A stretch of 53,396 bases of DNA from an uncultured Candidatus Saccharibacteria bacterium (GTDB taxonomy: Bacteria; Patescibacteriota; Minisyncoccia; 2-02-FULL-40-12; IGHO2-12-FULL-4). Below are positions 7,819 through 53,396 of the stretch, in pieces (position 1 is the stretch's first letter; each line of letters begins with the position of its first letter). The notes under the pieces were generated by a model, which was not told the origin of the DNA, ran no database searches, and worked only from the letters and a program-made list of their open reading frames with translations. The stretch spans positions 1 through 53,396 of the forward strand of contig CAZOKW010000003.1 of the NCBI GenBank assembly GCA_964580765.1, given 5' to 3'. The translations under genes and the position numbers were made by a program.

Positions 7819-7907
7819 AAATAAGTTATAAAGTTCATAAAGTTCATAAAGTAAAAAATTTTGACTTGATGGACTTGATAAACTTTATAACTTGATAAAC
7901 TAATATC

Positions 7908-11490: not shown

Positions 11491-11656
11491 TATAGAGGTC
11501 ATCTCAAACCCTCTTTCATTACGAAATTTTAAAAACTTTAAGCGAAAATAATGAAGATTGAGGAAGGATACTAATAGTATTTTGACGAAATCTGAATTAT
11601 TTGTAGCTAAAGTTTTTAAATTGCAGTAGAATATGGGGTTTGAGATGACCTCTACA
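11491..11656. mobile_element. MITE-like element with 21-bp terminal inverted repeats (20/21 match)
   Basis: Left arm tatagaggtcatctcaaaccc at 11491-11511; right arm gggtttgagatgacctctaca at 11636-11656. The left arm starts 3 nt from the start codon of the minus-strand PEGA gene. The right arm is an inverted copy of that gene's 5' end. Confidence 0.45.
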
Positions 11657-12750: not shown

Positions 12751-12972
12751 GTCATAATGCCAAGTACTGCTTTTTCCGGACGCTCACTTTTTTCCGGCGA
12801 AAAAGCTCGCTCATTGTAAGCAGTGGATTCGGAAAGAATTAAAAGATTAATTATATTCTTTCCGTCCAGCTCGCTACTTTTTCCGCATAATTCTGCTGAA
12901 TAGATTGCAAAAGTAGCTCGCGAGCAATCCACCGCTTACAGAGCCTTCAAAAGCAATACTTGGCATTATGAC
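12751..12972. mobile_element. MITE-like element with 24-bp terminal inverted repeats and nested internal palindromes
   Basis: gtcataatgccaagtactgctttt at 12751 and aaaagcaatacttggcattatgac at 12949 (23/24 match). Internal partner pairs ctcattgtaagcagtggattc / gaatccaccgcttacagag. Confidence 0.5.
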
Positions 12973-13191: not shown

Positions 13192-14445
13192 ATGTCAAGT
13201 AATCCCCTGAAAAAAATCGCCTTAGTTCATGACTGGCTTTTGGGATTGGGGGGGGCGGAGAGGACACTGAAGGTTCTGCATGAGATGTTTCCCCAAGCGC
13301 CAATTTATACTTTTTTTTACAACAAAAAATTTACCGATAAATTTTTACCGAACGCTCAAATTAGACCCTCCTTCATCCAGAAAATTTGTAAACTAAAAAC
13401 TATAAACTATAAACTATTCTTGCCCCTTCTGCCCATTGCCGCCGAGTCATTTGATTTAAGCCATTTTAATCTGGTCATCTCATCTTCCATCGCCTTTTCC
13501 AAGGGACTGATTTTGAAACCGAAAACAAAACATATCTGCTATTGCTACAGTCCCACTCGATTTTTGTGGGATTGGCACCAGGAATATTTACTTGGAAACG
13601 GGGTTTCCAAGTTAAATAAAGGATGGGGAGTTAAAATACTTCAACATTTTTTAAGAATCTGGGACCGGCAGTCCGCCAATCGGGTGGACCAGTTTGTGGC
13701 TATTTCCAAAACTGTTCAGCAACGCATTAAAAAATATTACGGACGAGATTCGATTGTAATTTATCCGCCAGTTACCAGAATTGAAAGCAGTGTACTCCCT
13801 CGGGACATTGATTTTCCCAGCGAGAAAATCAATTCACTGTCGGCTATGGATTTTGTCCGAAGTGAGGAAATTATACTTCGTCCAAACCATGCAATCCACA
13901 GCCGACAGTGCCCTCTGGAGTACACTGCTTCCAAATCTGATCTCATACCAAATTATTACTTAATCGTTTCCCGTTTATTCCCACACAAAAACATTGATAT
14001 CGCTATCAGGGCCTTTAACAAATTGGAACTGCCTCTGATAATTATCGGCGCTGGGCCGGAATATGGAAAATTAAAAAAAATAATTGAGAACAAGAATATG
14101 ATAAAATTACTGGGAGAGGTGCCGGATACAGAATTAGGAAACTATTACGCCGATACTAAGGCCTTTATCATGCCACAGGAAGAGGACTTTGGCATGACTC
14201 CATTGGAAGCCATGGCCTTTGGCAAACCGGTTCTGGCCTTGCGAAAAGGAGGGGCGCTGGAGTATGTTTTAGAAGGAATCAATGGAGAATTTTTTGACGA
14301 CCCTCATCCCGCCATTTTAGCCGACGGGGTCCGCCGTTTAAACGAAAATTATAAAAATTACAGCCCTTTAGTCATAAAAAAAACTGCGGAAAGATTTTCA
14401 CGCAGTCGGTTTGAAGAGGAGATAAAAAACATTATTTCAAAATGA
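13192..14445 (+). CDS. GT4-family glycosyltransferase with an in-frame palindromic-element insertion
   Basis: N-terminal ALVHDWLLGLGGAERT glycosyltransferase motif. The 141-bp family-4 element at 13788-13928 is a multiple of 3 and keeps the frame. Confidence 0.7.
   Translation: MSSNPLKKIALVHDWLLGLGGAERTLKVLHEMFPQAPIYTFFYNKKFTDKFLPNAQIRPSFIQKICKLKTINYKLFLPLLPIAAESFDLSHFNLVISSSIAFSKGLILKPKTKHICYCYSPTRFLWDWHQEYLLGNGVSKLNKGWGVKILQHFLRIWDRQSANRVDQFVAISKTVQQRIKKYYGRDSIVIYPPVTRIESSVLPRDIDFPSEKINSLSAMDFVRSEEIILRPNHAIHSRQCPLEYTASKSDLIPNYYLIVSRLFPHKNIDIAIRAFNKLELPLIIIGAGPEYGKLKKIIENKNMIKLLGEVPDTELGNYYADTKAFIMPQEEDFGMTPLEAMAFGKPVLALRKGGALEYVLEGINGEFFDDPHPAILADGVRRLNENYKNYSPLVIKKTAERFSRSRFEEEIKNIISK
13788..13928. 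mobile_element. family-4 palindromic element (TIR gcagNNtact...ccctc) inside the GT4 gene
   Basis: Outer inverted repeat gcagtgtactcc / ggagtacactgc. Inner pair cactgtcggctatggat / atccacagccgacagtg. Core ggattttgtccgaagtga...ttcgtccaaaccatgcaatcc is shared with the copy at 50689-50839. Confidence 0.6.
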
Positions 14446-14537: not shown

Positions 14538-15512
14538 ATGTCACCTCGTGTTTTTATAATCATTCTCCAGTACAACCATTCCCAAGACACTATTAAGTGC
14601 CTTGATTCGGTTGGGAAATTGACCTACCCCAACTTTCAAACAGTTGTCGTGGACAATGCTTCTCAAAGTTCTGAAAAAGATAATATCAAGAACTACATAA
14701 AAAGTCAAGGCAACATTGTTTTGCTCGAAAATGAAAAAAATTTGGGATACGCCGGAGGAAATAATACCGGAATAAAATACGCTTTAGCCCATGGCGCGGA
14801 TTATGTTTTCATTTTAAATAACGACACGACTGTTCCGCCGGACTTACTTGAGAAATTGGTAAACGAAGGGGAAAGTGACTCTAAAATTGGAATAGTGGGA
14901 CCGGCCATCAAAGAAGGGGATGGGCGAATCGCTTACTACGGAAAAATCTCCTGGCTCAAAGCAGAACTGAAACATGTCTATGGAAAATCAGCCATACACC
15001 TACTCGAAAATTCCCGAGCGACAAGTCGAGGGTCGAGAGTGGGTGGTATGGCTGATTTTCCCGATCGAGTACGAGTATTAGGGCCGAAAGAATATGTCAT
15101 CGGGGCGGGAATGCTTATCAAAAAAGAGGTACTGGAAAAGATAGATGGTTTTGATGAGGTTTACTTTCTATATTTTGAAGATGCCGACCTCTGTCTGCGC
15201 GCCCAATTAGCCGGTTATAAGCTCAAAATTGCCCCAGAAACAATGATTTATCACCAAGGAGCCGCCAGCACCTCTACTCTTGGCAAACCGCTACTTTTAC
15301 GGTACCATATGAGGAACGCTCTGATTTTTAACTCGCTCAACGCGCCTTGGCCAGTTAAGTTTAGTTTAATCTTCTGGTCCAGCTACATTTTACTGAAAAA
15401 CTTTTTGAAAGTTTTTCTTTTGCCATCCAAAGTAACGGCCGGAGAAGCCATCATTGACGGCGTGCTGGATTTTTATAAAAACAACTACGGAAAAATAAAT
15501 ACTCCCAATTAA
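14538..15512 (+). CDS. GT2-family glycosyltransferase with an in-frame family-2 element insertion
   Basis: VVDNASQ, GYAGGNNTG and EDADLCLRAQLAGYKL motifs. The frame is maintained across the 14985-15058 insert, which encodes KSAIHLLENSRATSRGSRVGGMADF. Confidence 0.75.
   Translation: MSPRVFIIILQYNHSQDTIKCLDSVGKLTYPNFQTVVVDNASQSSEKDNIKNYIKSQGNIVLLENEKNLGYAGGNNTGIKYALAHGADYVFILNNDTTVPPDLLEKLVNEGESDSKIGIVGPAIKEGDGRIAYYGKISWLKAELKHVYGKSAIHLLENSRATSRGSRVGGMADFPDRVRVLGPKEYVIGAGMLIKKEVLEKIDGFDEVYFLYFEDADLCLRAQLAGYKLKIAPETMIYHQGAASTSTLGKPLLLRYHMRNALIFNSLNAPWPVKFSLIFWSSYILLKNFLKVFLLPSKVTAGEAIIDGVLDFYKNNYGKINTPN
14985..15058. mobile_element. family-2 RPE-like palindromic element, copy 1, in-frame in the GT2 gene
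   Basis: aaatcagccatacacc...ctcgaaaattcccgagcgacaagtcgagggtcgagagtgggtgg...tatggctgattt with a terminal 16-bp imperfect inverted repeat. Confidence 0.7.
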
Positions 15513-15520
15513 TTAAATTG

Positions 15521-15691
15521 CTAGCTTTCGTTCAAATATGACCGATTGGCTGCAAATTACCGAAGCGGAGTGAAAATTTGGCCGGTAGATTAAAATTCGG
15601 TCCGACTCTTGGAGGGGTACTGAATTTTAGTCGGCAAATTGAGCAAAGCGAGGATAATTTGTCCAAGAGGACATCTTGAAAAGAGAGCTGG
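15521..15691 (+). ncRNA. candidate structured element SE, copy 1, upstream of the GT4 gene
   Basis: Near-identical to 34399-34589 over about 160 nt (ttcaaatatgNNcgattgg...ggaggggtactgaattttagtcggcaaattga...gcgaggataatttgtccaagagg.catcttgaaaagaga). It ends 17 nt before the ATG at 15709. Confidence 0.4.
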
Positions 15692-15708
15692 CAATTTAAT
15701 TAAAAAAT

Positions 15709-16875
15709 ATGTTAAGAATTGGTATAGAGTGCCATGCTCTAGAGGCAAATCGTTGGGGAGTGGGGCACCACTTAGCAAAACTGCTTGAAGAAATTTCTAT
15801 AAAATCTGAACTCGCCAACGAGTTCAGATTTTATCTTTACTTTAAAGGTCGTATTCCTGACGATTCTTACCTTAATAACCCCATCTTTGTAAAAAGAATT
15901 TTAAAACTACCCCTCATTAGTCCATCTTTTAACATTTTTTTTCATTTTCTTTTGCCCCTGGTCTACTTCAGAGACCATCTGCAAGCGGTCTTTTTTGCCG
16001 GTTTTATGTTGCCGGCATTTTTTCTGGGAAAATCATTGGTTCTTCTGACTAGCGACGTCTACTACGAATACACTCAAGGCCAATTGCCATTTCGCTACAA
16101 ATTGAGCTACGCCCTTTTCGCTAATTGGGCCGCTTGGCGCGCCACCAAAATTACCTCTCTATCAAACACGGACAAAGAGGAAATAGTAAAGATGTTTAAA
16201 ATTGCTCCTGAAAAAATCTCAGTCAATTATTTAGGGGTTGACCAAAAGCAGGTGGTTACCTCCCTTTTGCAGTTCGTCGGCGACGAGTCCGACGCAAAAA
16301 AGGGAGGTAACCACCTGCCTTTAAATTATCTTTTGTATGTTGGTCAAGCTTTTCCCCGAAGGAGAGCCAAGGAAACTATTCAATCCTTTGCTATTTTAGC
16401 TCCTAAGTATCCTGATTTAAAATTAATTCTGGTCGGCCAAGATAAATACAATCCGCCCGTTCTGCAAAATTTAGTTAAAGAAACAAACCAAAAACTCGGC
16501 GGGGAAAGAATAATTTATCATGGTTACATAGAAAACGACGATGAACTGCAAAAACTGATGGCCGGAGCAAAATTATTTATTTATCTATCGTCTTCCGAGG
16601 CCTTTGGTATTCCACCCCTGGAAGCACTAGCCGCCGGCGTTCCTCCGATAGTTAAAGACAACGACCTGAATCATGAACTTTATGAAGGCCATGCTTTTTA
16701 TGTGAAAGATGAAAAAGACCCGGTACAAATTGCCCTTGCTCTGGAAAAAGCTCTGACCGATATCGTCCGCCGTCAAGAAATTATTCAAAATTCAGAAAAA
16801 GTAATTTCAAAGTTCAACTGGAAAAATCACGCCGAAAAATTCCTTGAGACCATGAGAGAAATAGTAAAAAATTAA
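15709..16875 (+). CDS. GT4/GT1-family glycosyltransferase
   Basis: C-terminal EAFGIPPLEALAAGVPPIV retaining-GT motif. Confidence 0.7.
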   Translation: MLRIGIECHALEANRWGVGHHLAKLLEEISIKSELANEFRFYLYFKGRIPDDSYLNNPIFVKRILKLPLISPSFNIFFHFLLPLVYFRDHLQAVFFAGFMLPAFFLGKSLVLLTSDVYYEYTQGQLPFRYKLSYALFANWAAWRATKITSLSNTDKEEIVKMFKIAPEKISVNYLGVDQKQVVTSLLQFVGDESDAKKGGNHLPLNYLLYVGQAFPRRRAKETIQSFAILAPKYPDLKLILVGQDKYNPPVLQNLVKETNQKLGGERIIYHGYIENDDELQKLMAGAKLFIYLSSSEAFGIPPLEALAAGVPPIVKDNDLNHELYEGHAFYVKDEKDPVQIALALEKALTDIVRRQEIIQNSEKVISKFNWKNHAEKFLETMREIVKN

Positions 16876-18749
16876 TGCGAGAGGCTCCGGTGGACATACT
16901 TTTGTTCGACGGCGCTACAGGGATTCCGCAACGGGCCACTGCAGACATTGTGGCTACCGTTGCGGAACCTTCCATGCGACACAAAAGTGTCCCCACTCCG
17001 CCTCTGGTAAATATGTTTAAACACTTTGATACTCTTAAAAAACCAGTTAATGTCATCTTCCTAGTCCAAATTGTGGTCGTCTTTTTGGTGGCCTTCGGTG
17101 TCTGGCCAAGAACACTGATAATTCCTTTGACGGCCTTAATCGCCATTTTTATTTTACGAGCCGATTTGGAAACATCCGCTTCTTTTTTTATCCGCTCCAT
17201 ACCACTTTTCGTGGCCATTCCTTTTACCTCTTATTTTGATTCTTTCAATATCTGGCGAATCGCCGGGGGATTGATTTTTTTGAAATGGTTTTATCAATCG
17301 TACAAAGAAAGGATAAGAATAGCGGGCAAATCAGCCATACACCTACTCGAAAATTCCCGAGGAGATTCTATGGGCGGGCTAAAGCACCGCCCACCAGAAA
17401 CTTCTCCTGACAGCGACAGTCGAGGGTCGAGAGTGGGTGGTATGGCTGATTTGCTAGTCATAAAAATTAAAAAATATCCTTTAGCGTCTTTGTTAACGAC
17501 TTTTCTTTTACTTTCCACCCTATCCCTTCTAGCCGCCGAAGATATTTTTACTGGAATCAAAAGAATAATTTATTTAATCAATTTGAGTTTAGTTCCTCTA
17601 GTCGTTTACGACTTGATTAAAAAAAAACCCGCCCTCATCAAAAAGTTCTTAGATAGCATTTTGATTTCTGGAGTAATCGTGGCCGGAGTCGGCATCACCC
17701 AGTTAGTCAGCGCTTACTTAATGCCTTTGGGCGCTTTTCTGGATTTTTGGGGAGGTACGGTTCAGCTTGGCTTTTATGGCTCACAGTGGTCCAGTATCGC
17801 TTTAGAAGGGAACACTTGGTTTGCCTACTTCGGCGACCAACTATCTTTGCGAATTTTTTCAACTTTTACGGACTCTCACTCTTTTCCGGTTTACCTTTTA
17901 ATGACAATTCCAGCTCTCTTGGCTTTAGCTAAACTCACTTGGAAACGGGGTTTCCAAGTGAGTGGAATCGTTCTCCTTGTCTTGTATCTTCTGATTATCC
18001 TAAGCGGCACCCGAGGAATATGGTTAGCCGTTTTAGGACCTTTACTGGCTTGGCCGGTTTTAGTTAATTTTCTAAAAAGGGATGGGGGGAGTTTAGAAAA
18101 AAGTTTGTTAAAAAAACTCGGATTGCTCCTTTTGCCATTTTTTCTTCTTTTCGCCGCCGCTTTTCCTATTATGGGCTCGGACCAATTCTGGGTTGAAAAA
18201 GAAAATAATCAAATTCTGGCCAAACGGATTCGTTCCGTTCTCGATTTGAACGAGACATCAAATAGTGGACGGGTAGAAATCTGGAAAAAAACGGTCAAAT
18301 CAATTATTCACCGTCCGCTCCTGGGGGTGGGGATTGGTAACTTTCCAACTGTTCTTTCTCAGCATACTGACTTGGCCAAAGCCGGCTCTTCTGCGCATAA
18401 TCTCTATCTCCATATTGCCGCCGAAATCGGCCTAGTCGGGCTTTTAGCCGCTTTAGGTATTTTGTTCATAATTTTAAAAAGAAGTTGGGATGTTTTCCGA
18501 AGAGCCAATCAGCCACACCCCCACTCGAAAATTCCCGAGCGAGGAGTCGGGGGTCGAGAGTGGGTCGGTGTGGCTGATTGGCTCACTATTAAAACCTACG
18601 CTGCCGCTTTTGTCCTTTACAGTTTGTGGGTTTTGTTTTACTCTTTAACGGATGCGATAATGTTTGACGAGCGCGTTTTTCTCGTTTTTGCCATTAATTC
18701 AGCCGTTATTTTAGGTCTATATAAAACAAAATCCGCCTTAGCGGATTAA
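16875..18749 (+). CDS. O-antigen ligase (Wzy_C)-like polytopic membrane protein, with two in-frame family-2 element insertions
   Basis: Many TM helices. HNLYLHIAAEIGLVGLL Wzy_C-like motif. The start is uncertain because the first 40 codons overlap a family-1 remnant. Confidence 0.6.
   Translation: MREAPVDILLFDGATGIPQRATADIVATVAEPSMRHKSVPTPPLVNMFKHFDTLKKPVNVIFLVQIVVVFLVAFGVWPRTLIIPLTALIAIFILRADLETSASFFIRSIPLFVAIPFTSYFDSFNIWRIAGGLIFLKWFYQSYKERIRIAGKSAIHLLENSRGDSMGGLKHRPPETSPDSDSRGSRVGGMADLLVIKIKKYPLASLLTTFLLLSTLSLLAAEDIFTGIKRIIYLINLSLVPLVVYDLIKKKPALIKKFLDSILISGVIVAGVGITQLVSAYLMPLGAFLDFWGGTVQLGFYGSQWSSIALEGNTWFAYFGDQLSLRIFSTFTDSHSFPVYLLMTIPALLALAKLTWKRGFQVSGIVLLVLYLLIILSGTRGIWLAVLGPLLAWPVLVNFLKRDGGSLEKSLLKKLGLLLLPFFLLFAAAFPIMGSDQFWVEKENNQILAKRIRSVLDLNETSNSGRVEIWKKTVKSIIHRPLLGVGIGNFPTVLSQHTDLAKAGSSAHNLYLHIAAEIGLVGLLAALGILFIILKRSWDVFRRANQPHPHSKIPERGVGGREWVGVADWLTIKTYAAAFVLYSLWVLFYSLTDAIMFDERVFLVFAINSAVILGLYKTKSALAD
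16878..16918. repeat. truncated family-1 hairpin element (half copy, minus orientation)
   Basis: gaggctccggtggacatacttttgttcgacggcgct matches the left half of the reverse-oriented copy at 36301-36380. Confidence 0.4.
17328..17452. mobile_element. family-2 RPE-like element, copy 2, with a 50-nt internal insertion
   Basis: Same termini aaatcagccatacacc / ggtatggctgattt. The extra internal hairpin is gggcgggctaaagcaccgccc. It is in-frame in the ligase gene. Confidence 0.65.
18505..18581. mobile_element. family-2 RPE-like element, copy 3
   Basis: ccaatcagccacacc / ggtgtggctgattgg is a perfect 15-bp terminal stem with paired compensatory changes (atac to acac, gtat to gtgt). It is read in a different frame from copy 2 within the same ligase gene. 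Confidence 0.65.
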
Positions 18750-30065: not shown

Positions 30066-31397
30066 TTATAGGTAATCTAATGGATTTATTGAACCTTCAA
30101 AATAGTTAAAATATAACTGGCCGTTTTTTTCGTTGATATAAGTAAAGAAATCTTTATAAACACTTAGATGTAAATGGGAGCCGGTGGAATTTCCGGTAGA
30201 CCCCTCATAACCGATAACATCACTGGCCGTAACCGCCAAACCATTAACCAAACCGGAAGGAGCGCGCAGATGAGCGTAAACACTGACCAATCCGCCATTG
30301 TGCCGCACAGCCACCCAATGGCCGAAACCATCGTTAAACCCGCTGGCCAAAATATTTCCGGCGGCCATCGGATGAATGGCCGTACCATAACCGCCCGCCA
30401 AATCAATCCCGTTATGAGGAGCGCCACCATAAGGTTTTCGTCTGGAACGGGCATAAGCGGTATATCCGTAACCTTGGGTAATGTGATATTCATCTTCCGG
30501 CCATTGAAAAATTTTAGTTCCCCGCGGAGGAACCGCATCAGCCGTCACATGTACGATAAAAGCCCCAGACTGCAAGGCCTGATCTTCCAAATTCTTTAAT
30601 TCCGCGAAAAACTCCGCTTCTTTCTTCTCCGTTTCCGCCAGTAATTTTTGATACTCCGCCTCCTGCCCCTTGGTCCTGACCAAAAGATTGTTCTTGTTCG
30701 ATTTGGTGCCGCTTAAAGCCACCTGCTGATTCTTCTGTGAATTATTCAACTTTTCCAAATCCTGTTTTTTTATTTCCAGTTCGGTCTTATTTTCTTCCAG
30801 TTCTTGGCGTTCGTTTTTTAAAACAGTAATGGCGGCCAACAAACTCTTGTTTAAATTATCGGCCTGCTTGGCTTGATCCAAAAAATCGGAAAGGTGGTTA
30901 TTTTTCAACAAAATAGCCAGCCAGTTTTCCCGGTCGTTTTGATACATCATTTTCAGTAAACTGCCCACCGTATCTTGACGATTTTTGATCTTTTCGTGCC
31001 GGTCAAAAATTTTATCGCGCAAATCCCCGATTACCAACTGTGTAGAGGAAATCTTATTTCCGGTTATTCTGACTTCCGTTTCCAACCGGCTGATCTGATT
31101 GGTCAAAACGCTTATTTCTTTTTGTAAACTAGTCGCCTCCTTTTGCTTGCCGGAAACAACTTTTTTATATTCATCTGATTTCTTTTGCAGTTCTTCCAAC
31201 TGTTTTCTCAAGTCCAATATTTTCTGATTGACATCTTCCGCCGCCAATCCAGATCCGGAATAAAAAAAGAAAGAGAAGAAAACGACCAGGCAAATCAGCC
31301 ATACACCTACCTGAAAACTCCCGAGCGACAAGTCGAGGGTCGAAGGTAGGTTGTATTGCTGATTTGCTAAAAATTTACTTTTGAATTGCTTTTTCAA
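30066..31397 (-). CDS. M23 family metallopeptidase with coiled-coil region (EnvC-like)
   Basis: Long coiled-coil. C-terminal HNGIDLA...GSTGNSTGSHLHLSV M23 motifs. The N-terminal 35 codons are encoded by the family-2 element copy at 31292-31365. Confidence 0.7.
   Translation of the reverse strand: MKKQFKSKFLANQQYNLPSTLDLSLGSFQVGVWLICLVVFFSFFFYSGSGLAAEDVNQKILDLRKQLEELQKKSDEYKKVVSGKQKEATSLQKEISVLTNQISRLETEVRITGNKISSTQLVIGDLRDKIFDRHEKIKNRQDTVGSLLKMMYQNDRENWLAILLKNNHLSDFLDQAKQADNLNKSLLAAITVLKNERQELEENKTELEIKKQDLEKLNNSQKNQQVALSGTKSNKNNLLVRTKGQEAEYQKLLAETEKKEAEFFAELKNLEDQALQSGAFIVHVTADAVPPRGTKIFQWPEDEYHITQGYGYTAYARSRRKPYGGAPHNGIDLAGGYGTAIHPMAAGNILASGFNDGFGHWVAVRHNGGLVSVYAHLRAPSGLVNGLAVTASDVIGYEGSTGNSTGSHLHLSVYKDFFTYINEKNGQLYFNYFEGSINPLDYL
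31292..31365. mobile_element. family-2 RPE-like element, copy 4, antisense within the 5' end of the M23 peptidase gene
   Basis: aaatcagccatacacctacc...cccgagcgacaagtcgagggtcgaaggtaggttgtattgctgattt. Confidence 0.6.
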
Positions 31398-33536: not shown

Positions 33537-33555
33537 AAAAGGTATATTAAGCGCG

Positions 33556-39939: not shown

Positions 39940-42624
39940 TTACTTAAATACTACAATAAATATCCCATCTTTGAAATCCACATTTATCACCGTTCCCCGC
40001 GCCGGCTTCTCCCGCAAGATCTCATCGGAGATGCGGTTCTCAATTTGTTTTTGGATTATCCTGCGCAACTCCCGCGCTCCAAAATGAGGGTCATATCCTT
40101 CTTCGGCAATTTTAGCGACGGCCTCCGGACTGATCTTTAAATCATAACCGGATTTATTTAAGCGGGATTGCAAAAATCCTAATTGCAATTTTACTATTTC
40201 GGCGATCTGTTCTCTGGGTAAACCGTGGAAAACAATAATTTCATCCAAACGGTTTAAAAACTCCGGCCGGAAATACTTTTTAAGCTCATCTTTAAGTTTG
40301 ACCCGCAAGTCCTCGTAAGCCATCTGTTTCTTTTCTTCTTTGTCCAGTTCGTGCTGAATAATATCAGAACCGACATTACTGGTGGCGATAATAATAGTAT
40401 TGGTAAAATCAACTACCCGGCCCTGCCCGTCGGTCAGTCGTCCGTCCTCCAAAACCTGCAAAAGGACATTAAAAATATCCGGATGGGCTTTTTCAATTTC
40501 ATCCAACAGAACGATAGAGTGGGGACGGCGGCGGACCGCTTCGGTCAACTGTCCCCCTTCTTCAAACCCCACATAGCCTGGAGGAGCGCCGATCAACCGC
40601 GCCACATTGTGCCTCTCCATATATTCCGACATATCCAGCCGAATCATGGCCTCCTGATTTCCGAACATCACCTGCGCTAAAGAACGGGATAATTCCGTCT
40701 TGCCCACTCCGGTCGGACCTAAAAATATAAAAGAAGCGATGGGACGATGCGGATCGCCCAAGCCCGCCCGGGACCGACGAATAGCGCTGGCCACCGCTTT
40801 GATGGCCTCTTCTTGTCCGATCACCCGCAAAGACAACTTTTTCTCCAGATTCAAAAGTTTTTCCCGCTCTTCTTCGGTTAGTTCACTGACCGGAATGCCA
40901 GTTAATTTGGAAACAACCTCCGCAATGGCATGCTCGTTCACCACCGGAATACTTCGGCCGATTGATTCCTGCCATTGGTCAAAAAGCTGTTCCCTCTTTT
41001 TTTCCAATTCACCAATCTCTTTTTTAATTTTATCCGCTTCTTTTATTTTCTTGGCTCGCTGGGCCGCTTCTAACTCTTTTTTAAGAGAATGGATATTTTC
41101 ATCCAATTCCCGTACCTCCTGCGGTTCGGAGGTAGATTGAATCCGCACCCGCGCCGCCGCCTGATCCATCAGGTCAATGGCTTTATCCGGCAAAAAACGA
41201 GAAGTAATATAACGATCGGAAAGCTCCGCCGCCGCCGCCAGCGCTTCGTCTAAAATCTTGATCCGGTGATGTGATTCATAACGATCCCGCAAACCGCGCA
41301 AAATTTCAACGGCCTGTCCTACGGTCGGTTCTGGTATGACAATCGGCTGGAATCTTCTTTCCAGCGCCTGGTCTTTCTCAATGTATTTTTTGTATTCTTT
41401 TAAAGTAGTAGCCCCCACCACATGCAGTTCACCTCGGGCCAAAGATGGTTTGAAAATATTAGCCGCGTCCATCCCCGATTCCCCGCCGGAACCGGTGCCG
41501 ACTAAAAGATGCAATTCATCTATAAAAATTATTAAGTTATCCCGATTAGCTTTTATTTCTTCAATGATAACCTTGAGCCGTTCTTCCAAATCACCCCGAA
41601 AACGGGTACCGGACATAATGGCCGCCAAATCCAGTTCCGCTAATCTTTTTCCAAACAATGACTCCGGCACACTGCCGGAAACAATGCGTTGCGCTAATCC
41701 CTCCACGATAGCGGTCTTACCAACCCCCGGCTCCCCGATTAGCACCGGATTGTTTTTGGTGCGGCGGGACAAAATTTCCACCGCCGTTTCAATTTCTTTA
41801 GACCGGCCAATAACCGGGTCCAGTTTCCCTTCCCTAGCCAACTGGGTCAGATCGCGGGAAAATTTGTCTAAAGTAGGCGTATTCATTTTAATAACACTCT
41901 CCGCTTTGCCCATCCCCACTTTTTTGATGATTTTCTGGCGCAAAGGGCCGGCATCGGCCAGACCATATCTTTTCAAAAGCTGACTGGCCAATCCCTCGCC
42001 TTCTTTAATCAAGGCCAGAACTAAATGTTCCGGGCCGATGTAATTGTGATTCAAAGCGCGAGCTTCGTCCAAAGACAGATCAAAAACCCTTTTCAAGCGG
42101 GGAGAATATTCTAATTCCTGTGGCACAGTTGTGCCCTTGATCATATTATCTTTGATCTCTTTTTCCAGTGATTTAACATCAATTTTTAACTGCTTCAGAA
42201 CGCCGGCCACGATCTCGTTTTGCAACAAACTAAACAAAAGATGCTCCGTATCGATCATGGCATGCCTGCTATCTTGGGCGAACTCCGCCGCCCGGTCTAA
42301 AATACCGTTGGCCTCATCGGAAAGATAATCTGTGAAATCCACTCTTTCTTCCGAGGGAGCGCGCATTTGGCCGGGCAAACCAAGTCCCTCCAATCCACTA
42401 CCACCCAGACCACCGCCCTGACCGCTTCCGCCACCTCCAAAAATATCTCCAAAAAGACCGCCAAAGATGTCATTTAAATTGCCGAACTCCCGGCCACTGG
42501 AACGACCCTGGGTCTTATTGGCGCACTGCTGGCAAATATCCTTAACCTGTTTGACGCCATTTTTTATAATGCTGATTTTGCCGCTCGCCCTATTCTTCTT
42601 ACAAATATCGCAAATATTATTCAT
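39940..42624 (-). CDS. clpB: ClpB/ClpC-type Hsp100 chaperone ATPase with an N-terminal ClpX-like C4 zinc ribbon and a Gly/Phe-rich linker
   Basis: Two AAA+ modules (GEPGVGKTAIVEGLA and FLGPTGVGKTELSRSLA), a coiled-coil M-domain, a Clp_N-like segment and GAPPGYVGFEEGG. The N-terminus CDICKK-x21-CQQC followed by DIFGGLFGDIFGGGGSGQGGG is unusual. Confidence 0.85.
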   Translation of the reverse strand: MNNICDICKKNRASGKISIIKNGVKQVKDICQQCANKTQGRSSGREFGNLNDIFGGLFGDIFGGGGSGQGGGLGGSGLEGLGLPGQMRAPSEERVDFTDYLSDEANGILDRAAEFAQDSRHAMIDTEHLLFSLLQNEIVAGVLKQLKIDVKSLEKEIKDNMIKGTTVPQELEYSPRLKRVFDLSLDEARALNHNYIGPEHLVLALIKEGEGLASQLLKRYGLADAGPLRQKIIKKVGMGKAESVIKMNTPTLDKFSRDLTQLAREGKLDPVIGRSKEIETAVEILSRRTKNNPVLIGEPGVGKTAIVEGLAQRIVSGSVPESLFGKRLAELDLAAIMSGTRFRGDLEERLKVIIEEIKANRDNLIIFIDELHLLVGTGSGGESGMDAANIFKPSLARGELHVVGATTLKEYKKYIEKDQALERRFQPIVIPEPTVGQAVEILRGLRDRYESHHRIKILDEALAAAAELSDRYITSRFLPDKAIDLMDQAAARVRIQSTSEPQEVRELDENIHSLKKELEAAQRAKKIKEADKIKKEIGELEKKREQLFDQWQESIGRSIPVVNEHAIAEVVSKLTGIPVSELTEEEREKLLNLEKKLSLRVIGQEEAIKAVASAIRRSRAGLGDPHRPIASFIFLGPTGVGKTELSRSLAQVMFGNQEAMIRLDMSEYMERHNVARLIGAPPGYVGFEEGGQLTEAVRRRPHSIVLLDEIEKAHPDIFNVLLQVLEDGRLTDGQGRVVDFTNTIIIATSNVGSDIIQHELDKEEKKQMAYEDLRVKLKDELKKYFRPEFLNRLDEIIVFHGLPREQIAEIVKLQLGFLQSRLNKSGYDLKISPEAVAKIAEEGYDPHFGARELRRIIQKQIENRISDEILREKPARGTVINVDFKDGIFIVVFK

Positions 42625-42737
42625 GTTTGCTTCGCAAACTAGTTTATAAAGTTCGTAAAGTTCTTCAAGTTTATCAAGTAAGATTCTTTTTCAACTTCTT
42701 TACTTTATAAACTTGATGGACTTTATAACTTGATAAA

Positions 42738-49032: not shown

Positions 49033-49291
49033 GTCCCACCCACCTTCTTTTCAAATATGAGCTCGCCGGCATAAATAAACGAAGATTTCTGAAATCAAGC
49101 CGGTAATAAAAATTGGGTCCGATGGTTTCGAGGGGTACTGAATTTTTGTCGGCTTGATGCGGTTAAAGTGAATTGTTTCACTTTAACCCCGAATTTTAGT
49201 CCGAGCTCCTGCGAGGACGTTAGGAAATTCGGAAAACCTTTTTATTGGCACGGCGAGTGATTCTTGAAAAGAGGTGGGTGGGGACGGAGCG
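49033..49291 (+). ncRNA. candidate structured element SE, copy 3 (divergent, with an extra internal hairpin), upstream of dnaB
   Basis: Shares ttcaaatatg, gccgg, ggtccga...gaggggtactgaatttt.gtcggc, gcgagga and cttgaaaagagg with copies 1 and 2. The 5' end gtcccacccaccttcttttcaa pairs with the 3' end cttgaaaagaggtgggtggggac. The inserted perfect hairpin is gttaaagtga/tcactttaac. Confidence 0.4.
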
Positions 49292-50688: not shown

Positions 50689-50839
50689 GCAGATACTGCC
50701 CTCTTCAGTACGCTCACTCCGCCAGCGTCTCCGTTCGCTCGCGGCGTCTGGGGATTTTGTCCGAATTGAAAGAGATTAATTATAATTCGTCCAAACCATG
50801 CAATCCCCATCCTTAGCGACTTCAGAGGGCAGTATCTGC
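50689..50839. mobile_element. family-4 palindromic element (TIR gcagatactgccctcttcag / cttcagagggcagtatctgc) in the dnaB-recR spacer
   Basis: 16-20-bp terminal inverted repeats. Core ggattttgtccgaattga...ttcgtccaaaccatgcaatcc is shared with 13788-13928. Confidence 0.6.
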
Positions 50840-50855
50840 TACGCTATAAATAACT

Positions 50856-51467
50856 ATGTCATCCAAATTTAAAAAGGCCGTCGAATATATCGCCAAACTG
50901 CAAGGCATCGGGCCGCGGCAAGCCACCCGCATCGCTCTGGCGGTTTTGAACTGGCCCAAAGAGGAAATCGCCAGATTTTCCGAAGTAATCTTTAACCTTT
51001 CCGAAGGAGTGAGCCTTTGCCAAGAATGCTTCAACTTCAGTGAGGACAAAACCTGCCGTCTCTGCTCCGATCCCAAAAGAGAACATGGTAAAATCTGCGT
51101 GGTGGAGAAAATCACCGACTTGGAAGCCATTGAAAAAACTGGCTTGTATCGGGGAGTTTACCATGTCTTGGGTGGAGCGATTAATCCTTTGGAAGGTTCT
51201 TTGCCGCAAAATTTGAAAATCAAAGAGTTGGAAAACAGAATTAAAAATCGGCTAGCCGACTACACCAACGGCTCTAAAGAGGAGTTGGAAATTATTATCG
51301 CCACCAATCCCCAGACCACCGGAGAAACTACGGCTTTGTACTTGGAAGAAGTTTTGAAGCCAATAGGGATAAAAATAACCCGCCTGGCCAAAGGTCTGGC
51401 CAGCGGGTCCACTCTAGAATACGCCGATGCGGCTACTCTGCATCATGCTTTTAAGAACCGGAAGTAA
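50856..51467 (+). CDS. recR: recombination protein RecR
   Basis: LQGIGPRQATRIA HhH, C4 zinc finger CQECFNFSEDKTCRLC, Toprim domain. Confidence 0.9.
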   Translation: MSSKFKKAVEYIAKLQGIGPRQATRIALAVLNWPKEEIARFSEVIFNLSEGVSLCQECFNFSEDKTCRLCSDPKREHGKICVVEKITDLEAIEKTGLYRGVYHVLGGAINPLEGSLPQNLKIKELENRIKNRLADYTNGSKEELEIIIATNPQTTGETTALYLEEVLKPIGIKITRLAKGLASGSTLEYADAATLHHAFKNRK

Positions 51468-51564
51468 TAGCTATATCCCCATTTGCCTCTTTTCAAGATT
51501 CCCTCGAGAGTAAATCCTAGTTTGATTTCGTCATAAAGCCTTATAAAAATCAGGTACCTGGAGG

Positions 51565-51727
51565 GCTTACTGATATTACACTCCTTCGGGACGCTGTGAG
51601 CTTGTGGATTGCTCGGTTGGTTGGAGTATAATTTTCTTACTCCAGCCAAATCCACAGGCGAACGGCGAGTGGGGGCCGCTCGCTGGAAAGCGGCATAACG
51701 ACCCGAGGGAGTGTAATATCAGTAAGC
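51565..51727. ncRNA. candidate structured ncRNA or MITE with a 26-bp closing stem
   Basis: gcttactgatattacactccttcggg pairs with cccgagggagtgtaatatcagtaagc (one U-G). Internal stems gcttgtggatt/aatccacaggc, ttggagta/tactccag and gcgag/ctcgc, plus cgctGGAAagcg. It lies in the convergent recR/rplU spacer. Confidence 0.35.
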
Positions 51728-51745
51728 TCAATTAAAAATCACCCT

Positions 51746-52066
51746 TTAAACGGTGATTTTTAGTATTTCTACTTTAGTTTCTGGCTGGCGATGGCCCTTC
51801 TTCTTTTTGTATCTGGTTTTAGAGTGGTACTTAAAAACAATCTTTTTATCGGCTCTCTGATGAGCTAATACTTTAGCCCTGACTTTGGCTCCTTCCACTA
51901 AGGGCTGGCCAATTTGGGCATTTTCCGGCGAAGCATTCCCCACTAGTAAAACCTCCGCAAAATCAAACTCCTCCCCCTCTGGAGTAGTTATTTTTTCAAT
52001 CAAAAGCTTGTCCCCCTCCGAGACCCTGTACTGTTTGCCCCCTGTTTTAATAACGGCAAAAGACAT
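51746..52066 (-). CDS. rplU: 50S ribosomal protein L21
   Basis: MSFAVIKTGGKQYRVSEGDKLLIEKI. Confidence 0.85.
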   Translation of the reverse strand: MSFAVIKTGGKQYRVSEGDKLLIEKITTPEGEEFDFAEVLLVGNASPENAQIGQPLVEGAKVRAKVLAHQRADKKIVFKYHSKTRYKKKKGHRQPETKVEILKITV

Positions 52067-52117
52067 GATTTAGAGATGATATCAAAATAAATGGAAAATG
52101 TCCAATTTCTAAGACGC

Positions 52118-52181
52118 AAAAAAAAAGACCCCCGAACGAAGTTGCGAGGGCACACAGCGTGCCTCTACTTCGTACGGGGTC
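52118..52181 (-). terminator. rho-independent terminator after the Clp-D2-like gene
   Basis: Minus strand reads gaccccgtacgaagtagaggcacgctgtgtgccctcgcaacttcgttcggggg followed by tctttttttttgcg. Confidence 0.6.
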
Positions 52182-52198
52182 AATCACGGAAACGGTCG

Positions 52199-53314
52199 CT
52201 ATCTCCCTGGTGCCGCAGAAAAGGTCTGCGACTCCTGTTCCTTCGAGAAAGTGAGCTTATCGCTCGACGGAGCCAGGTCGATCTTGATCACATCACCCAG
52301 GCCGATCTGACCTGTCGCGATCAGATTCGACAACGGATAGACGAAGTGCCGTTCGATGGCGCGTTTTAAATGACGCGCACCATACTTCAGGTCGGTACCT
52401 TCGCGAAGGAGAAATTCTTTCGCCTCAGCCATGCATCGGAAATAAAACCTAATGTCCAACGAAGACGCCATGATGCGGTTCTGAACTTCATTCAGCTCGA
52501 TGTCCAGCACCTGCCTCAGGTCTTGATGGTTGAGCGTTCGGAAAACAACTACCTTATCGAGTCTGTTCATGAACTCGGGCGAGAACTTGCGTTTCGCCAC
52601 CTCGAGAGCGGTATGGTACATCTTCCGGTCAATCGATTCGAGGTTCGATGCGTCGGTGCGCACACCGGAAGTAAAGCCGATTCCTCCGCTGAGCATTTCG
52701 CTCATCTCGACGGCTCCGAGATTCGAGGTCATGAACACAACGCATCGCGACAGATCGACTTTGCGATTATCGCCCAGCGTCAATGTCGCCTTATCGAGGA
52801 TGCCCAGCAGGAGCTGCCACAGGGCCTCGTTTGCCTTCTCGATCTCGTCAAACAGGACGAAGGTCATTCGGCAACGATCGGTTTGATGCTGGTCGATCGC
52901 CTCCTGCGTCAGCAAAGGCGGAGTCTCACGGTGTCCGAGATAGCCCGGAGGGGAGCCGATCAATTTTGCGATTTCGTGGCTGTGCTGGAATTCGGCACAG
53001 TCAAGTTTTACAAAAGCCCGGGGGCTGCCGAAGAGAATCTCTGCAGAGGCCTCTACCACTCTTGTTTTACCTGAACCCGTTGGACCCAGAAAAAGCAGGT
53101 TACCGATCGGACGGCCCGGTACCGCCATGCCGGCCAGATAGATTTGATACATGTTCACAATTCTGCGAACCGCTCGATCCTGGCCGACGATCTTGCCCGA
53201 AAGACGGCGTTCGAAGTCGAGAACTTCCGAACTTCTTATTTCAGGATCGAGGAGTACCTCTTTTTGCGTTTGGGGCTTCATAAGCCCTCCTTTCTTAGTT
53301 ATTTGGGGCTTCAT
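52199..53314 (-). CDS. stand-alone Hsp100 D2-like AAA+ ATPase (ClpB C-terminal module homologue); GC-rich gene
   Basis: VGQDRAVRRIVN, FLGPTGSGKT and LIGSPPGYLGH...VLFDEIEKA...VFMTSNLG match the ClpA/B D2 module. Visibly GC-rich by eye (not counted). Two tandem start sites. Confidence 0.7.
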   Translation of the reverse strand: MKPQITKKGGLMKPQTQKEVLLDPEIRSSEVLDFERRLSGKIVGQDRAVRRIVNMYQIYLAGMAVPGRPIGNLLFLGPTGSGKTRVVEASAEILFGSPRAFVKLDCAEFQHSHEIAKLIGSPPGYLGHRETPPLLTQEAIDQHQTDRCRMTFVLFDEIEKANEALWQLLLGILDKATLTLGDNRKVDLSRCVVFMTSNLGAVEMSEMLSGGIGFTSGVRTDASNLESIDRKMYHTALEVAKRKFSPEFMNRLDKVVVFRTLNHQDLRQVLDIELNEVQNRIMASSLDIRFYFRCMAEAKEFLLREGTDLKYGARHLKRAIERHFVYPLSNLIATGQIGLGDVIKIDLAPSSDKLTFSKEQESQTFSAAPGR

Positions 53315-53336
53315 AAGCCCTCCTTTCTTAGTTATT
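53271..53336. repeat. perfect 2 x 33-bp tandem duplication covering the RBS and start codon of the Clp-D2-like gene
   Basis: tggggcttcataagccctcctttcttagttatt occurs twice. On the minus strand each unit carries AAGGAGGG followed by ATG, giving in-frame starts at 53314 and 53281. Confidence 0.8.
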
Positions 53337-53396
53337 TGAAGTTAATTGTTAAAAGGGTTTTTAAACCCTGACTTTCTTACTTATATTATACTAAAT

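Follow-up and report, generated by a model that had tools for sequence, protein, structure and literature searches.

The element at positions 51565-51727 of contig CAZOKW010000003.1 (assembly GCA_964580765.1), from an uncultured Candidatus Saccharibacteria bacterium, belongs to a family of ~150-base repeats that fold into a three-way junction and occur in small groundwater genomes of the Candidate Phyla Radiation (CPR) and Parcubacteria. [quoted passage not shown] It appears to be new but to belong to a known kind of element. On balance we favour the view that it is a non-autonomous interspersed palindromic element of CPR/Parcubacteria, resembling MITEs and the Rickettsia palindromic elements (RPEs), and that it represents mobile or recently mobile selfish DNA. 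Here "the window" refers to the whole 53,396-nt stretch of the contig that we analysed, and E5 to the copy at 51565-51727.

Copy E5 lies in the convergent spacer between recR (50856-51467, plus strand; Toprim and RecR domains) and rplU (51746-52066, minus strand; Ribosomal_L21p), a placement that had been proposed from the sequence and that open reading frames (ORFs) and Pfam matches confirm. On the minus strand it begins 19 nt past the rplU stop codon and finishes 98 nt past that of recR. As originally predicted, its ends form a closing helix of 26 contiguous pairs (5′ 26 nt, gcttactgatattacactccttcggg) with a single U-G on the plus strand, which on the minus strand becomes a C-A mismatch, and folding also confirmed the multi-stem interior. 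The minimum free energy (MFE) of the plus strand as RNA is −100.6 kcal/mol against a shuffle mean of −48.8 (z = −13.7), and none of 200 shuffles was as stable; the minus strand gives −87.4 kcal/mol (z = −12.1), and the element folded as single-stranded DNA −53.5 kcal/mol (z = −12.0). Because this fold is far more stable than those of the shuffles, the structure of E5 is real and far beyond chance.

The original prediction held the element to be single-copy within the window, and this did not stand. An inverted-repeat scan of the window exposed other intergenic elements with long closing helices, and folding revealed that they have a common interior. We aligned 50 non-identical members from relatives with MAFFT and built a covariance model, R1, on this alignment; the model finds four full-length copies in the window, three on the plus strand and one, E5, on the minus strand (Table 1), a density of one copy per ~13 kb. 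The copies have a G+C content of 0.42-0.58 (E5, 0.53) in a contig mostly at 0.40-0.45, and they contain short ORFs only, the frames of which are not conserved between copies. Copy E1 is a variant with an additional hairpin within the conserved bulge described below. Copy E4 fills the dnaB-recR spacer from 6 nt after the dnaB stop to 17 nt before the recR start (−68.9 kcal/mol, z = −8.7). The nearest relatives of E5, which differ from it in the closing helix, are L057 and the rplJ-rplL spacer copies of two Candidatus Yanofskybacteria metagenome-assembled genomes (MAGs).

Beyond the window, an exact-pattern scan of species-representative genomes yielded seven more copies, five of them in the MAG C4_metabat.bin.47 (hereafter C4) and two in Candidatus Yanofskybacteria MAGs, and a looser pattern run against metagenome contigs returned 94 stretches; ~62 of them are clear members, for the most part from groundwater. 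In ~0.66 Mb of related Parcubacteria/Yanofskybacteria loci R1 gave 95 matches at E ≤ 0.001, of which three, weak and on the reverse strand, overlap stronger ones, so that 92 separate copies remain. These include copies without the search pattern and reach up to three per 8-12-kb locus, and members of the family are 141-258 nt long.

Along the family strand, from 5′ to 3′, each element consists of a closing helix (P1), a short inner helix, a hairpin (P2) and a helix (P3) that encloses a further hairpin (P3a). Inverted termini of 16-29 bp form P1 in every copy, with a median of 18 and a maximum of 29 contiguous pairs. P2 occurs with 30 different arm sequences around a loop that reads CCAGCGA in 60 of 73 copies. 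P3 is GUGGAUU/AAUCCAC in most copies and itself covaries, and P3a carries an (A/U)UUAUA-containing loop and a 3′ bulge, ACC(A/G)UGC. Divergent copies with a different P3a still keep the bulge and the CCAGCGA loop, and some copies, E1 among them, bear extra hairpins in the P2 region, the P3a loop or the bulge. The original prediction had written out the plus strand of E5; the family consensus matches its minus strand, which carries the family interior as GGAUUU, a hairpin with an AAUUAUA loop and then CCAACCGAGCAAUCC, together with the hairpin loop CCAGCGAG. The 3′ bulge of E5 is ACCGAGC (51611-51617) as opposed to the consensus ACCRUGC. A GGAA-capped stem, cgctGGAAagcg, that had been proposed for the plus strand is unsupported because it is built on the invariant loop motif of the family: it is the complement of CGCU-UUCC-AGCG and so would consume the CCAGCG loop, and relatives use its complement, CCAGCGA, as the unpaired loop of another, covarying hairpin.

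Read on the opposite strand, the conserved AAUUAUA of the P3a loop (51627-51633 in E5; 50778-50784, 13869-13875 and 12849-12855 in the others) gives its exact complement TATAAT(T), and thus a perfect −10 hexamer. A −35-like hexamer occurs only as TTGCAT (complementary to a conserved AUGCAA), at a distance of 13 nt that is too short for a standard σ70 promoter in duplex DNA, and an outward promoter of this kind is unlikely. We also rejected an intrinsic terminator, the closing helix being followed by no U-run.

The stems of this architecture covary strongly. In a model-guided alignment, standard pairs fill 94.5% of 3147 pair cells, compared with 35-41% when partners are slid by 1-3 columns, and 35 of the 37 pairs show both-sided changes. 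The covariation score is 0.739, the slid controls score no more than 0.10, and none of 500 shuffles reaches 0.739. RNAalifold applied to a structure-blind MAFFT alignment still detects compensatory changes in 31 of the 37 pairs. We considered a pseudoknot between the P2 loop (AGCGAG) and a following CUCGCU and rejected it: the complement is found in one subfamily only, no covariation supports it, and the GC/AU dinucleotide at the putative partner instead covaries with the strand 5′ of P2.

These results also bear on one of the two identities that the original prediction had offered, a stable non-coding RNA of the 6S kind or another regulatory RNA. A small regulatory RNA gene of its own, expressed from the convergent spacer, would fit a very stable fold in a non-coding spacer flanked by terminator-like hairpins, and 6S RNA, at ~160-180 nt, likewise has a long closing helix formed from both ends. 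We nevertheless consider it extremely improbable. Rfam 15 returned no match at the gathering threshold for any part of the 53-kb window, to 6S RNA or to any other family, and at E ≤ 10 both E5 (51400-51800) and the best-scoring relative gave noise only, namely snoRNA and miRNA hairpins and the tail of a terminator-like sRNA. A three-way junction stands where 6S RNA has its central open-promoter-like bubble. Moreover, the sequence is multi-copy: the window has four copies and relatives have dozens, some of them within operons or a coding gene. A promoter scan gave no promoter-like site for E5 itself. We also detected no tRNA or tmRNA gene in the window, which is gene-dense housekeeping DNA.

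The character of the pairing bears on whether the constraint acts on RNA or on DNA. Across the 3147 cells, G-U and U-G pairs account for 50 (1.6%) and A-C and C-A for 89 (2.8%); the core helices of the 60 best copies hold 1194 Watson-Crick, 7 G-U and 8 A-C cells, and full-length P1 helices have 39 of each non-standard kind. The changes run from one Watson-Crick pair to another, with many flips from G-C to C-G. G-U is as rare as A-C, so that nothing here points to selection for RNA from a single strand; pairing restricted to Watson-Crick is what is expected if the constraint falls on both strands, or on the DNA as duplex or cruciform. Orientation counts, which rest on neighbouring long ORFs and hence on crude gene calls, place 36 copies in the same and 18 in the opposite orientation to the upstream gene, and 35 and 23, respectively, relative to the downstream gene; the skew is a bias and not a rule. 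In 74 of 78 copies it is the antisense strand that folds to the lower MFE, but we rejected this asymmetry as an indicator of the functional strand, the unpaired motifs being A/C-rich on the family strand and G/U-rich on the other.

Comparison of related genomes provides evidence of gain, loss and movement. The MAG C4 is syntenic with the window, with orthologous genes at 73-83% nucleotide identity. It lacks E1, the mreB stop and the GT4 glycosyltransferase start being only 10 nt apart (L006), and conversely two spacers that are short in the window, one of 19 nt (33537-33555) and one of 12 nt between an ABC-3 permease gene and efp, hold copies in C4 (L004:2214-2407 and L004:5815-5964, respectively). 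E4 is 91.7% identical over 168 nt, including the closing helix and ~15 nt of 3′ flank, to a copy at L007:1604-1774 of another genome, from which compensatory changes separate it, whereas orthologous genes of these two genomes share only 73-83% identity; the two lie in non-orthologous contexts, E4 between dnaB and recR and its relative between a glutaredoxin-like gene (grx) and sod. This grx-sod spacer holds a copy in six contigs that represent five distinct loci (two contigs are identical), with superoxide dismutases (SODs) 59-87% identical, and the copy is sense in four contigs and antisense in two. In L007 and L055, whose SODs are 87% identical, the same sub-type has been flipped whole, the outermost 3-nt mismatch bubble included, which a crossover within the arms would not invert. 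Taken together, the near-absence of wobble pairs, the mixed orientation and the occurrence of either orientation at one spacer argue against an RNA selected on one strand. Both E4 (50840-50858) and its L007 relative (~1600-1617) end in ..CGCY(W)TWAATAA 3-6 nt before the downstream start (recR and sod, respectively). No Shine-Dalgarno sequence is apparent. Such a 3′ tail may provide a −10 region or a leaderless start to the gene that follows it.

Copy E2 is located within a gene. It lies between the Glyco_transf_4 domain (ending at amino acid 194) and the Glycos_transf_1 domain (starting at amino acid 253) of the GT4 glycosyltransferase, and the ORF is open throughout. The C4 ortholog (L006; 80% amino acid identity by BLASTP) and P0003 have the same insertion in the same frame, with a conserved peptide, ..DFPSEKI..DFVRSEEIILRPNHAIHS.., and length differences among the three of whole codons. 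Because the frame is kept and the indels are multiples of three, the element in this linker is, on the evidence of these alignments, translated and not spliced out, and the conserved frame rules out an intron or other excised intervening sequence. Among 24 GT4 orthologs the linker may hold the present family in the frame of E2 or in a different one (P0013, P0014 and P0017; R1 scores 89 bits within the P0014 gene, at L106:2053-2205 of a Yanofskybacteria MAG), unrelated repeat-derived segments (P0011, P0016, P0018 and P0019), a remnant, or nothing. The remnant, in P0004 (L105; 85% identical in the alignment), retains only the RDADFPSEKI codons of the P1b-P2 part and gives no R1 match; it looks as though P3 and the 3′ arm had been lost through an internal deletion that left the frame intact. 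By this comparison the GT4 linker is a permissive insertion hot spot.

Nucleotide conservation at this locus is uneven. Window and C4 share 77.7% of nucleotides and 57.2% of third positions over 355 codons of flanking GT4, 88.6% and 89.5% over the 38 codons of the element core, and 33.3% and 38.5% over the 13 codons of the closing-helix arms in a protein-guided alignment; the arms are somewhat more alike by eye once indels are allowed, and at least 20 pairs still form in each copy. Judged by these identities, the core of E2 is constrained at the nucleotide level at one locus and P1 only to pair. Either selection acting on each copy, or gene conversion of the core from the many other copies of the family together with template-switch repair of the quasi-palindrome in P1, could produce such a pattern.

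The same locus speaks against a self-processing or catalytic RNA, that is, a new small ribozyme or a "punctuation" element cut from polycistronic transcripts that has spread as hammerhead and twister ribozymes have. Such an RNA would explain a three-way junction with few invariant unpaired nucleotides and freely covarying stems, present in multiple copies inside transcription units, and it would have to be new given the lack of an Rfam match. Yet the GT4 copies keep the frame, differ by indels of whole codons and use two reading frames across lineages, and they are therefore translated and not excised; both orientations occur, pairing is Watson-Crick only, and the candidate partner of the P2 loop neither covaries as a pseudoknot nor is conserved across subfamilies. 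We regard a ribozyme as very unlikely.

If the family is mobile DNA, as we favour, the following steps could account for it. Either strand can fold into the three-way junction, with a closing helix of 16-29 bp joining the two ends and three short conserved single-stranded motifs on display, namely the loops CCAGCGA and UUAUA and the bulge ACCRUGC. An enzyme encoded elsewhere and acting in trans would recognise these motifs on folded or duplex DNA and move the whole hairpin. The motifs would remain constant as the recognition signal, and the stems, needing only to pair, would drift by Watson-Crick replacement. An inserted copy would be co-transcribed with its neighbours as a compact hairpin and so be tolerated in tight spacers and in in-frame protein linkers. 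We also counted for this reading the insertion hot spot in the GT4 linker, the strong folding of the element as DNA and the end of the Logan short-read contig L003, which falls 4 nt short of the element.

Several observations weigh against mobile DNA. Inspection of 16 copies and comparison of filled with empty sites showed neither a target-site duplication nor a conserved flank motif, the empty sites coming from a relative 73-83% identical, at which distance a 2-bp duplication could escape notice. Pfam annotation of ~50 window ORFs gave housekeeping genes only and revealed no transposase, integrase or reverse transcriptase, and no recurrent partner enzyme emerged among 759 clustered ORFs flanking copies in 100 loci, where the clusters are again of housekeeping genes. 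The family pattern had 0 matches in viral contigs. Copies persist at the same spacers of diverged genomes (grx-sod, GT4, and rplJ-rplL in two Yanofskybacteria), and the P1 sequence differs between most copies, being common only within sub-lineages such as E4 with L007 or the ...GGCGAAUAAUGCC group. Where both neighbours are codirectional, copies are sense in 18 cases and antisense in 6 by the same gene calls. Finally, the E2 core is far more conserved than the synonymous sites of its host gene (0.895 versus 0.572), which is unexpected for a decaying selfish copy unless gene conversion maintains the core.

The last two of these observations also count in favour of a cis-acting RNA module used by the host, with mobility secondary or ancient: a long helix that serves as an RNase III signal or blocks exonucleases and uncouples the stability or expression of neighbouring cistrons, and loops that bind a host protein. 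Such a module would suit the very strong covariation around invariant loops, the unpaired motifs that are A/C-rich on the sense strand, the turnover of a closing helix that nevertheless stays paired at the orthologous GT4 locus, and the compensatory changes between E4 and its near-identical relative at a non-orthologous locus. It would suit, too, the way in which copies take up nearly the whole spacer, typically leaving 5-25 nt to the stop upstream and to the start downstream, as the sense rplJ-rplL copies of two Yanofskybacteria do. Antisense copies are, however, common, even at the same orthologous spacer, where the motifs would be transcribed as their complements, and G-U pairs are as rare as A-C, unlike in RNAs selected on one strand. 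Copies are translated through inside coding sequence, presence or absence at tight spacers varies among close relatives, P0004 keeps only a deleted remnant, and the absence of a U-tract after the helix means that it is no intrinsic terminator. We judge a cis-RNA module possible but rather unlikely. By analogy with Correia and ERIC elements, which are mobile and also act on mRNA, this explanation and the mobile-element one would not be exclusive.

It is likewise possible but rather unlikely that the invariant loops (CCAGCGA, UUAUA and ACCRUGC) are the ligand or substrate of a CPR protein, belonging either to a new mobilisation system that recognises hairpin ends or to a domesticated signal that punctuates or insulates cistrons. 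Under the first option the whole folded element would move without terminal-repeat recognition or target duplication. In either case a function of both strands would lie behind the core constraint in the gene copy and the restriction of covariation to Watson-Crick pairs.

Among known systems, the mobile-element reading finds its closest parallel in the RPEs, which occur in intergenic DNA and also as in-frame, translated insertions in unrelated protein-coding genes (Ogata et al. 2000, summarised in PMC10969869). Like them, the present family consists of ~150-bp palindromes with a very stable predicted hairpin and no transposase of their own, dispersed in many copies through a small reduced genome, both intergenically and as in-frame translated copies (here in the GT4 linker, copy E2 and not E5). 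The likeness is one of described features, and no sequence relationship is expected, the host being CPR/Parcubacteria and not an alphaproteobacterium. The present family also differs in that most copies are intergenic, that the reading frame varies by insertion so that no element-encoded peptide is conserved, and that its fold, a defined three-way junction, combines invariant loops with massive Watson-Crick covariation.

A MITE, the closer of the two, had been the other identity offered by the original prediction, which took multiple dispersed identical copies with target-site duplications as its mark. Many dispersed copies exist, but they are not identical and show no duplication. The element is short (E5, 163 nt, within the 50-500 bp of MITEs), non-coding, without a transposase gene, dispersed and multi-copy, with terminal inverted arms and the evidence of gain, loss and mobility given above; it departs from the classic definition in showing no target-site duplication and in being G+C-richer than its contig where MITEs are AT-rich. 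The definition and the Correia (Neisseria), ERIC/IRU (enterobacteria) and QMITE (Coxiella) families are described in PMC10969869. Terminal inverted repeats are conserved in these families, which also show target-site duplications (TA in Correia, direct repeats of 7-9 bp in QMITE2) and mostly have a recognisable parent insertion sequence (IS), and the transcript hairpin of Correia is an RNase III substrate, that of ERIC a modulator of mRNA decay (PMC10969869). Our family shares with them a size of 100-200 bp, terminal inverted arms, lack of an ORF, multiple copies, location at gene ends or between cistrons and a long transcript hairpin. It differs in that the arms vary between most copies, the G+C content exceeds the genome average and a duplication was not seen; nor did a parent IS emerge among the window ORFs or the ORFs flanking copies.

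The mobilisation steps suggested above are modelled on another group of hairpin repeats. REP sequences and their BIME assemblies are mobilised by RAYT (TnpA-REP) HUH enzymes, and IS200/IS605 elements move as single strands by "peel and paste". Both resemble the present family in being hairpin repeats without target-site duplication and in both orientations, and their recognition depends on folded single-stranded DNA, as it might here on the steps suggested. REPs are imperfect palindromes of 20-40 nt with a conserved 5′ GTAG tetranucleotide, and IS200/IS605 ends are two separate subterminal hairpins, whereas the repeats described here are a branched fold of 141-258 nt with one closing helix, and no Y1/HUH gene was seen in the examined sequence.

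At its own locus E5 is most likely a passenger in the convergent spacer, and we saw no sign of a site-specific role for this copy. Two terminator-like features flank it. One is the hairpin at the end of rplU (Table 1), in which the rplU stop codon (51746-51748) lies in the loop, so that the stem of this bidirectional structure encodes the last L21 codons; the other, read by eye from the sequence, lies at ~51545-51560 and consists of a small CAGGUACCUG hairpin with a U-run after it on the minus strand. On this arrangement a recR transcript would traverse E5 in antisense and then end at the first hairpin on the plus strand, and a transcript of rplU would reach E5 by read-through only. E5 probably forms part of the recR 3′ untranslated region, in antisense orientation upstream of the terminator-like hairpin.

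Table 1. Copies of the repeat family, substructures of copy E5 and other repeat features in the window.
Feature	Position	Strand	Context and details
Copy E1	12751-12972	+	mreB-GT4 spacer; R1 match 12760-12966, 64.1 bits
Copy E2	13776-13939	+	in frame in GT4 glycosyltransferase ORF 13192-14445; R1 match 13785-13933, 130.1 bits
Copy E4	50689-50839	+	dnaB-recR spacer; R1 match 50690-50841, 105.9 bits
Copy E5	51565-51727	-	complete family member; R1 match 51568-51721 (-), 85.5 bits, E = 3e-21, full model length
E5 closing helix P1, arm 1	51565-51590		pairs with 51702-51727
E5 closing helix P1, arm 2	51702-51727		pairs with 51565-51590
E5 hairpin P2	51675-51694	-	stem GCCGC/GCGGC; loop UUUCCAGCGA contains near-invariant CCAGCGA at 51680-51686
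E5 domain P3	51604-51655	-	stem GUGGAUU/AAUCCAC around hairpin P3a
Terminator-like hairpin beside E5	51731-51764		overlaps rplU stop codon; T-runs in both directions
Second repeat family, core 1	15007-15036		hairpin ~14985-15058
Second repeat family, core 2	18528-18557		hairpin ~18503-18579
Second repeat family, core 3	31314-31343		hairpin ~31290-31367

The window holds further repeats. A second, unrelated family of hairpin repeats, ~75-80 nt long, has the core AAAATTCCCGAGCGAnnAGTCGrGGGTCGA and variable outer arms. It is present in three copies where chance would give 0, and blastn finds it in C4 as well. Two of its copies also lie in open frame, one in the GT2 glycosyltransferase gene (14538-15512), between the Pfam-matched segments, and one in the gene for a Wzy_C protein (16875-18749). 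The peptide GDSMGGLKHR.PETSP occurs both in the GT4 linkers of relatives and earlier in ORF 16875-18749. The GT2-GT4 spacer is filled by a 195-nt inverted-repeat element (15509-15703) with 41-nt arms (MFE −78.3 kcal/mol, z = −8.2). We rejected it as a member of the present family, R1 scoring only 6.6 bits with filters off; the same spacer in C4 (L005:155-303) and in a Yanofskybacteria MAG (L106:3836-3999) holds true family copies, both antisense. The element at 15509-15703 would thus represent a third family or else a copy that has diverged heavily. Further long imperfect intergenic palindromes lie at 11493-11654, 7823-7893 and 42656-42725, and AAGTT.ATAAAGT-like arms are common to the last two, in the rpsD-rpoA spacer and between clpB and hrcA, respectively.

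The NCBI contig VMFO01000002.1 (GCA_007376105.1) is 100% identical to the window except for 25 bp (49036-49060, upstream of dnaB) that it lacks. At 52100-53396 the G+C content rises to ~0.53 over a gene (52199-53314, minus strand) for a 371-amino-acid AAA_2/ClpB_D2-small protein without the Clp_N and first AAA domains; a full ClpB of 894 amino acids is encoded at 39940-42624. We rejected an assembly chimera in this region, the ENA contig L001 continuing with the same arrangement.

CPR/Patescibacteria genomes, at ~1 Mb, are usually described as streamlined. If the density in the window holds genome-wide, ~1% of such a genome would consist of structured palindromic repeats, in parallel with Rickettsia. 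These repeats break short-read assemblies, distort gene calls by inflating or interrupting them and introduce spurious segments into CPR proteins; they will also keep surfacing as "novel ncRNA" candidates, and R1 would let annotators mask the family. The interest of the family lies in its host group, its density in a minimal genome, its translated in-gene copies and its clean Watson-Crick-only covariation around invariant loops. It offers an unusually clean natural data set on how a long helix is kept up by Watson-Crick-only replacement, and a starting point for tracking down the enzyme by which such elements would move.

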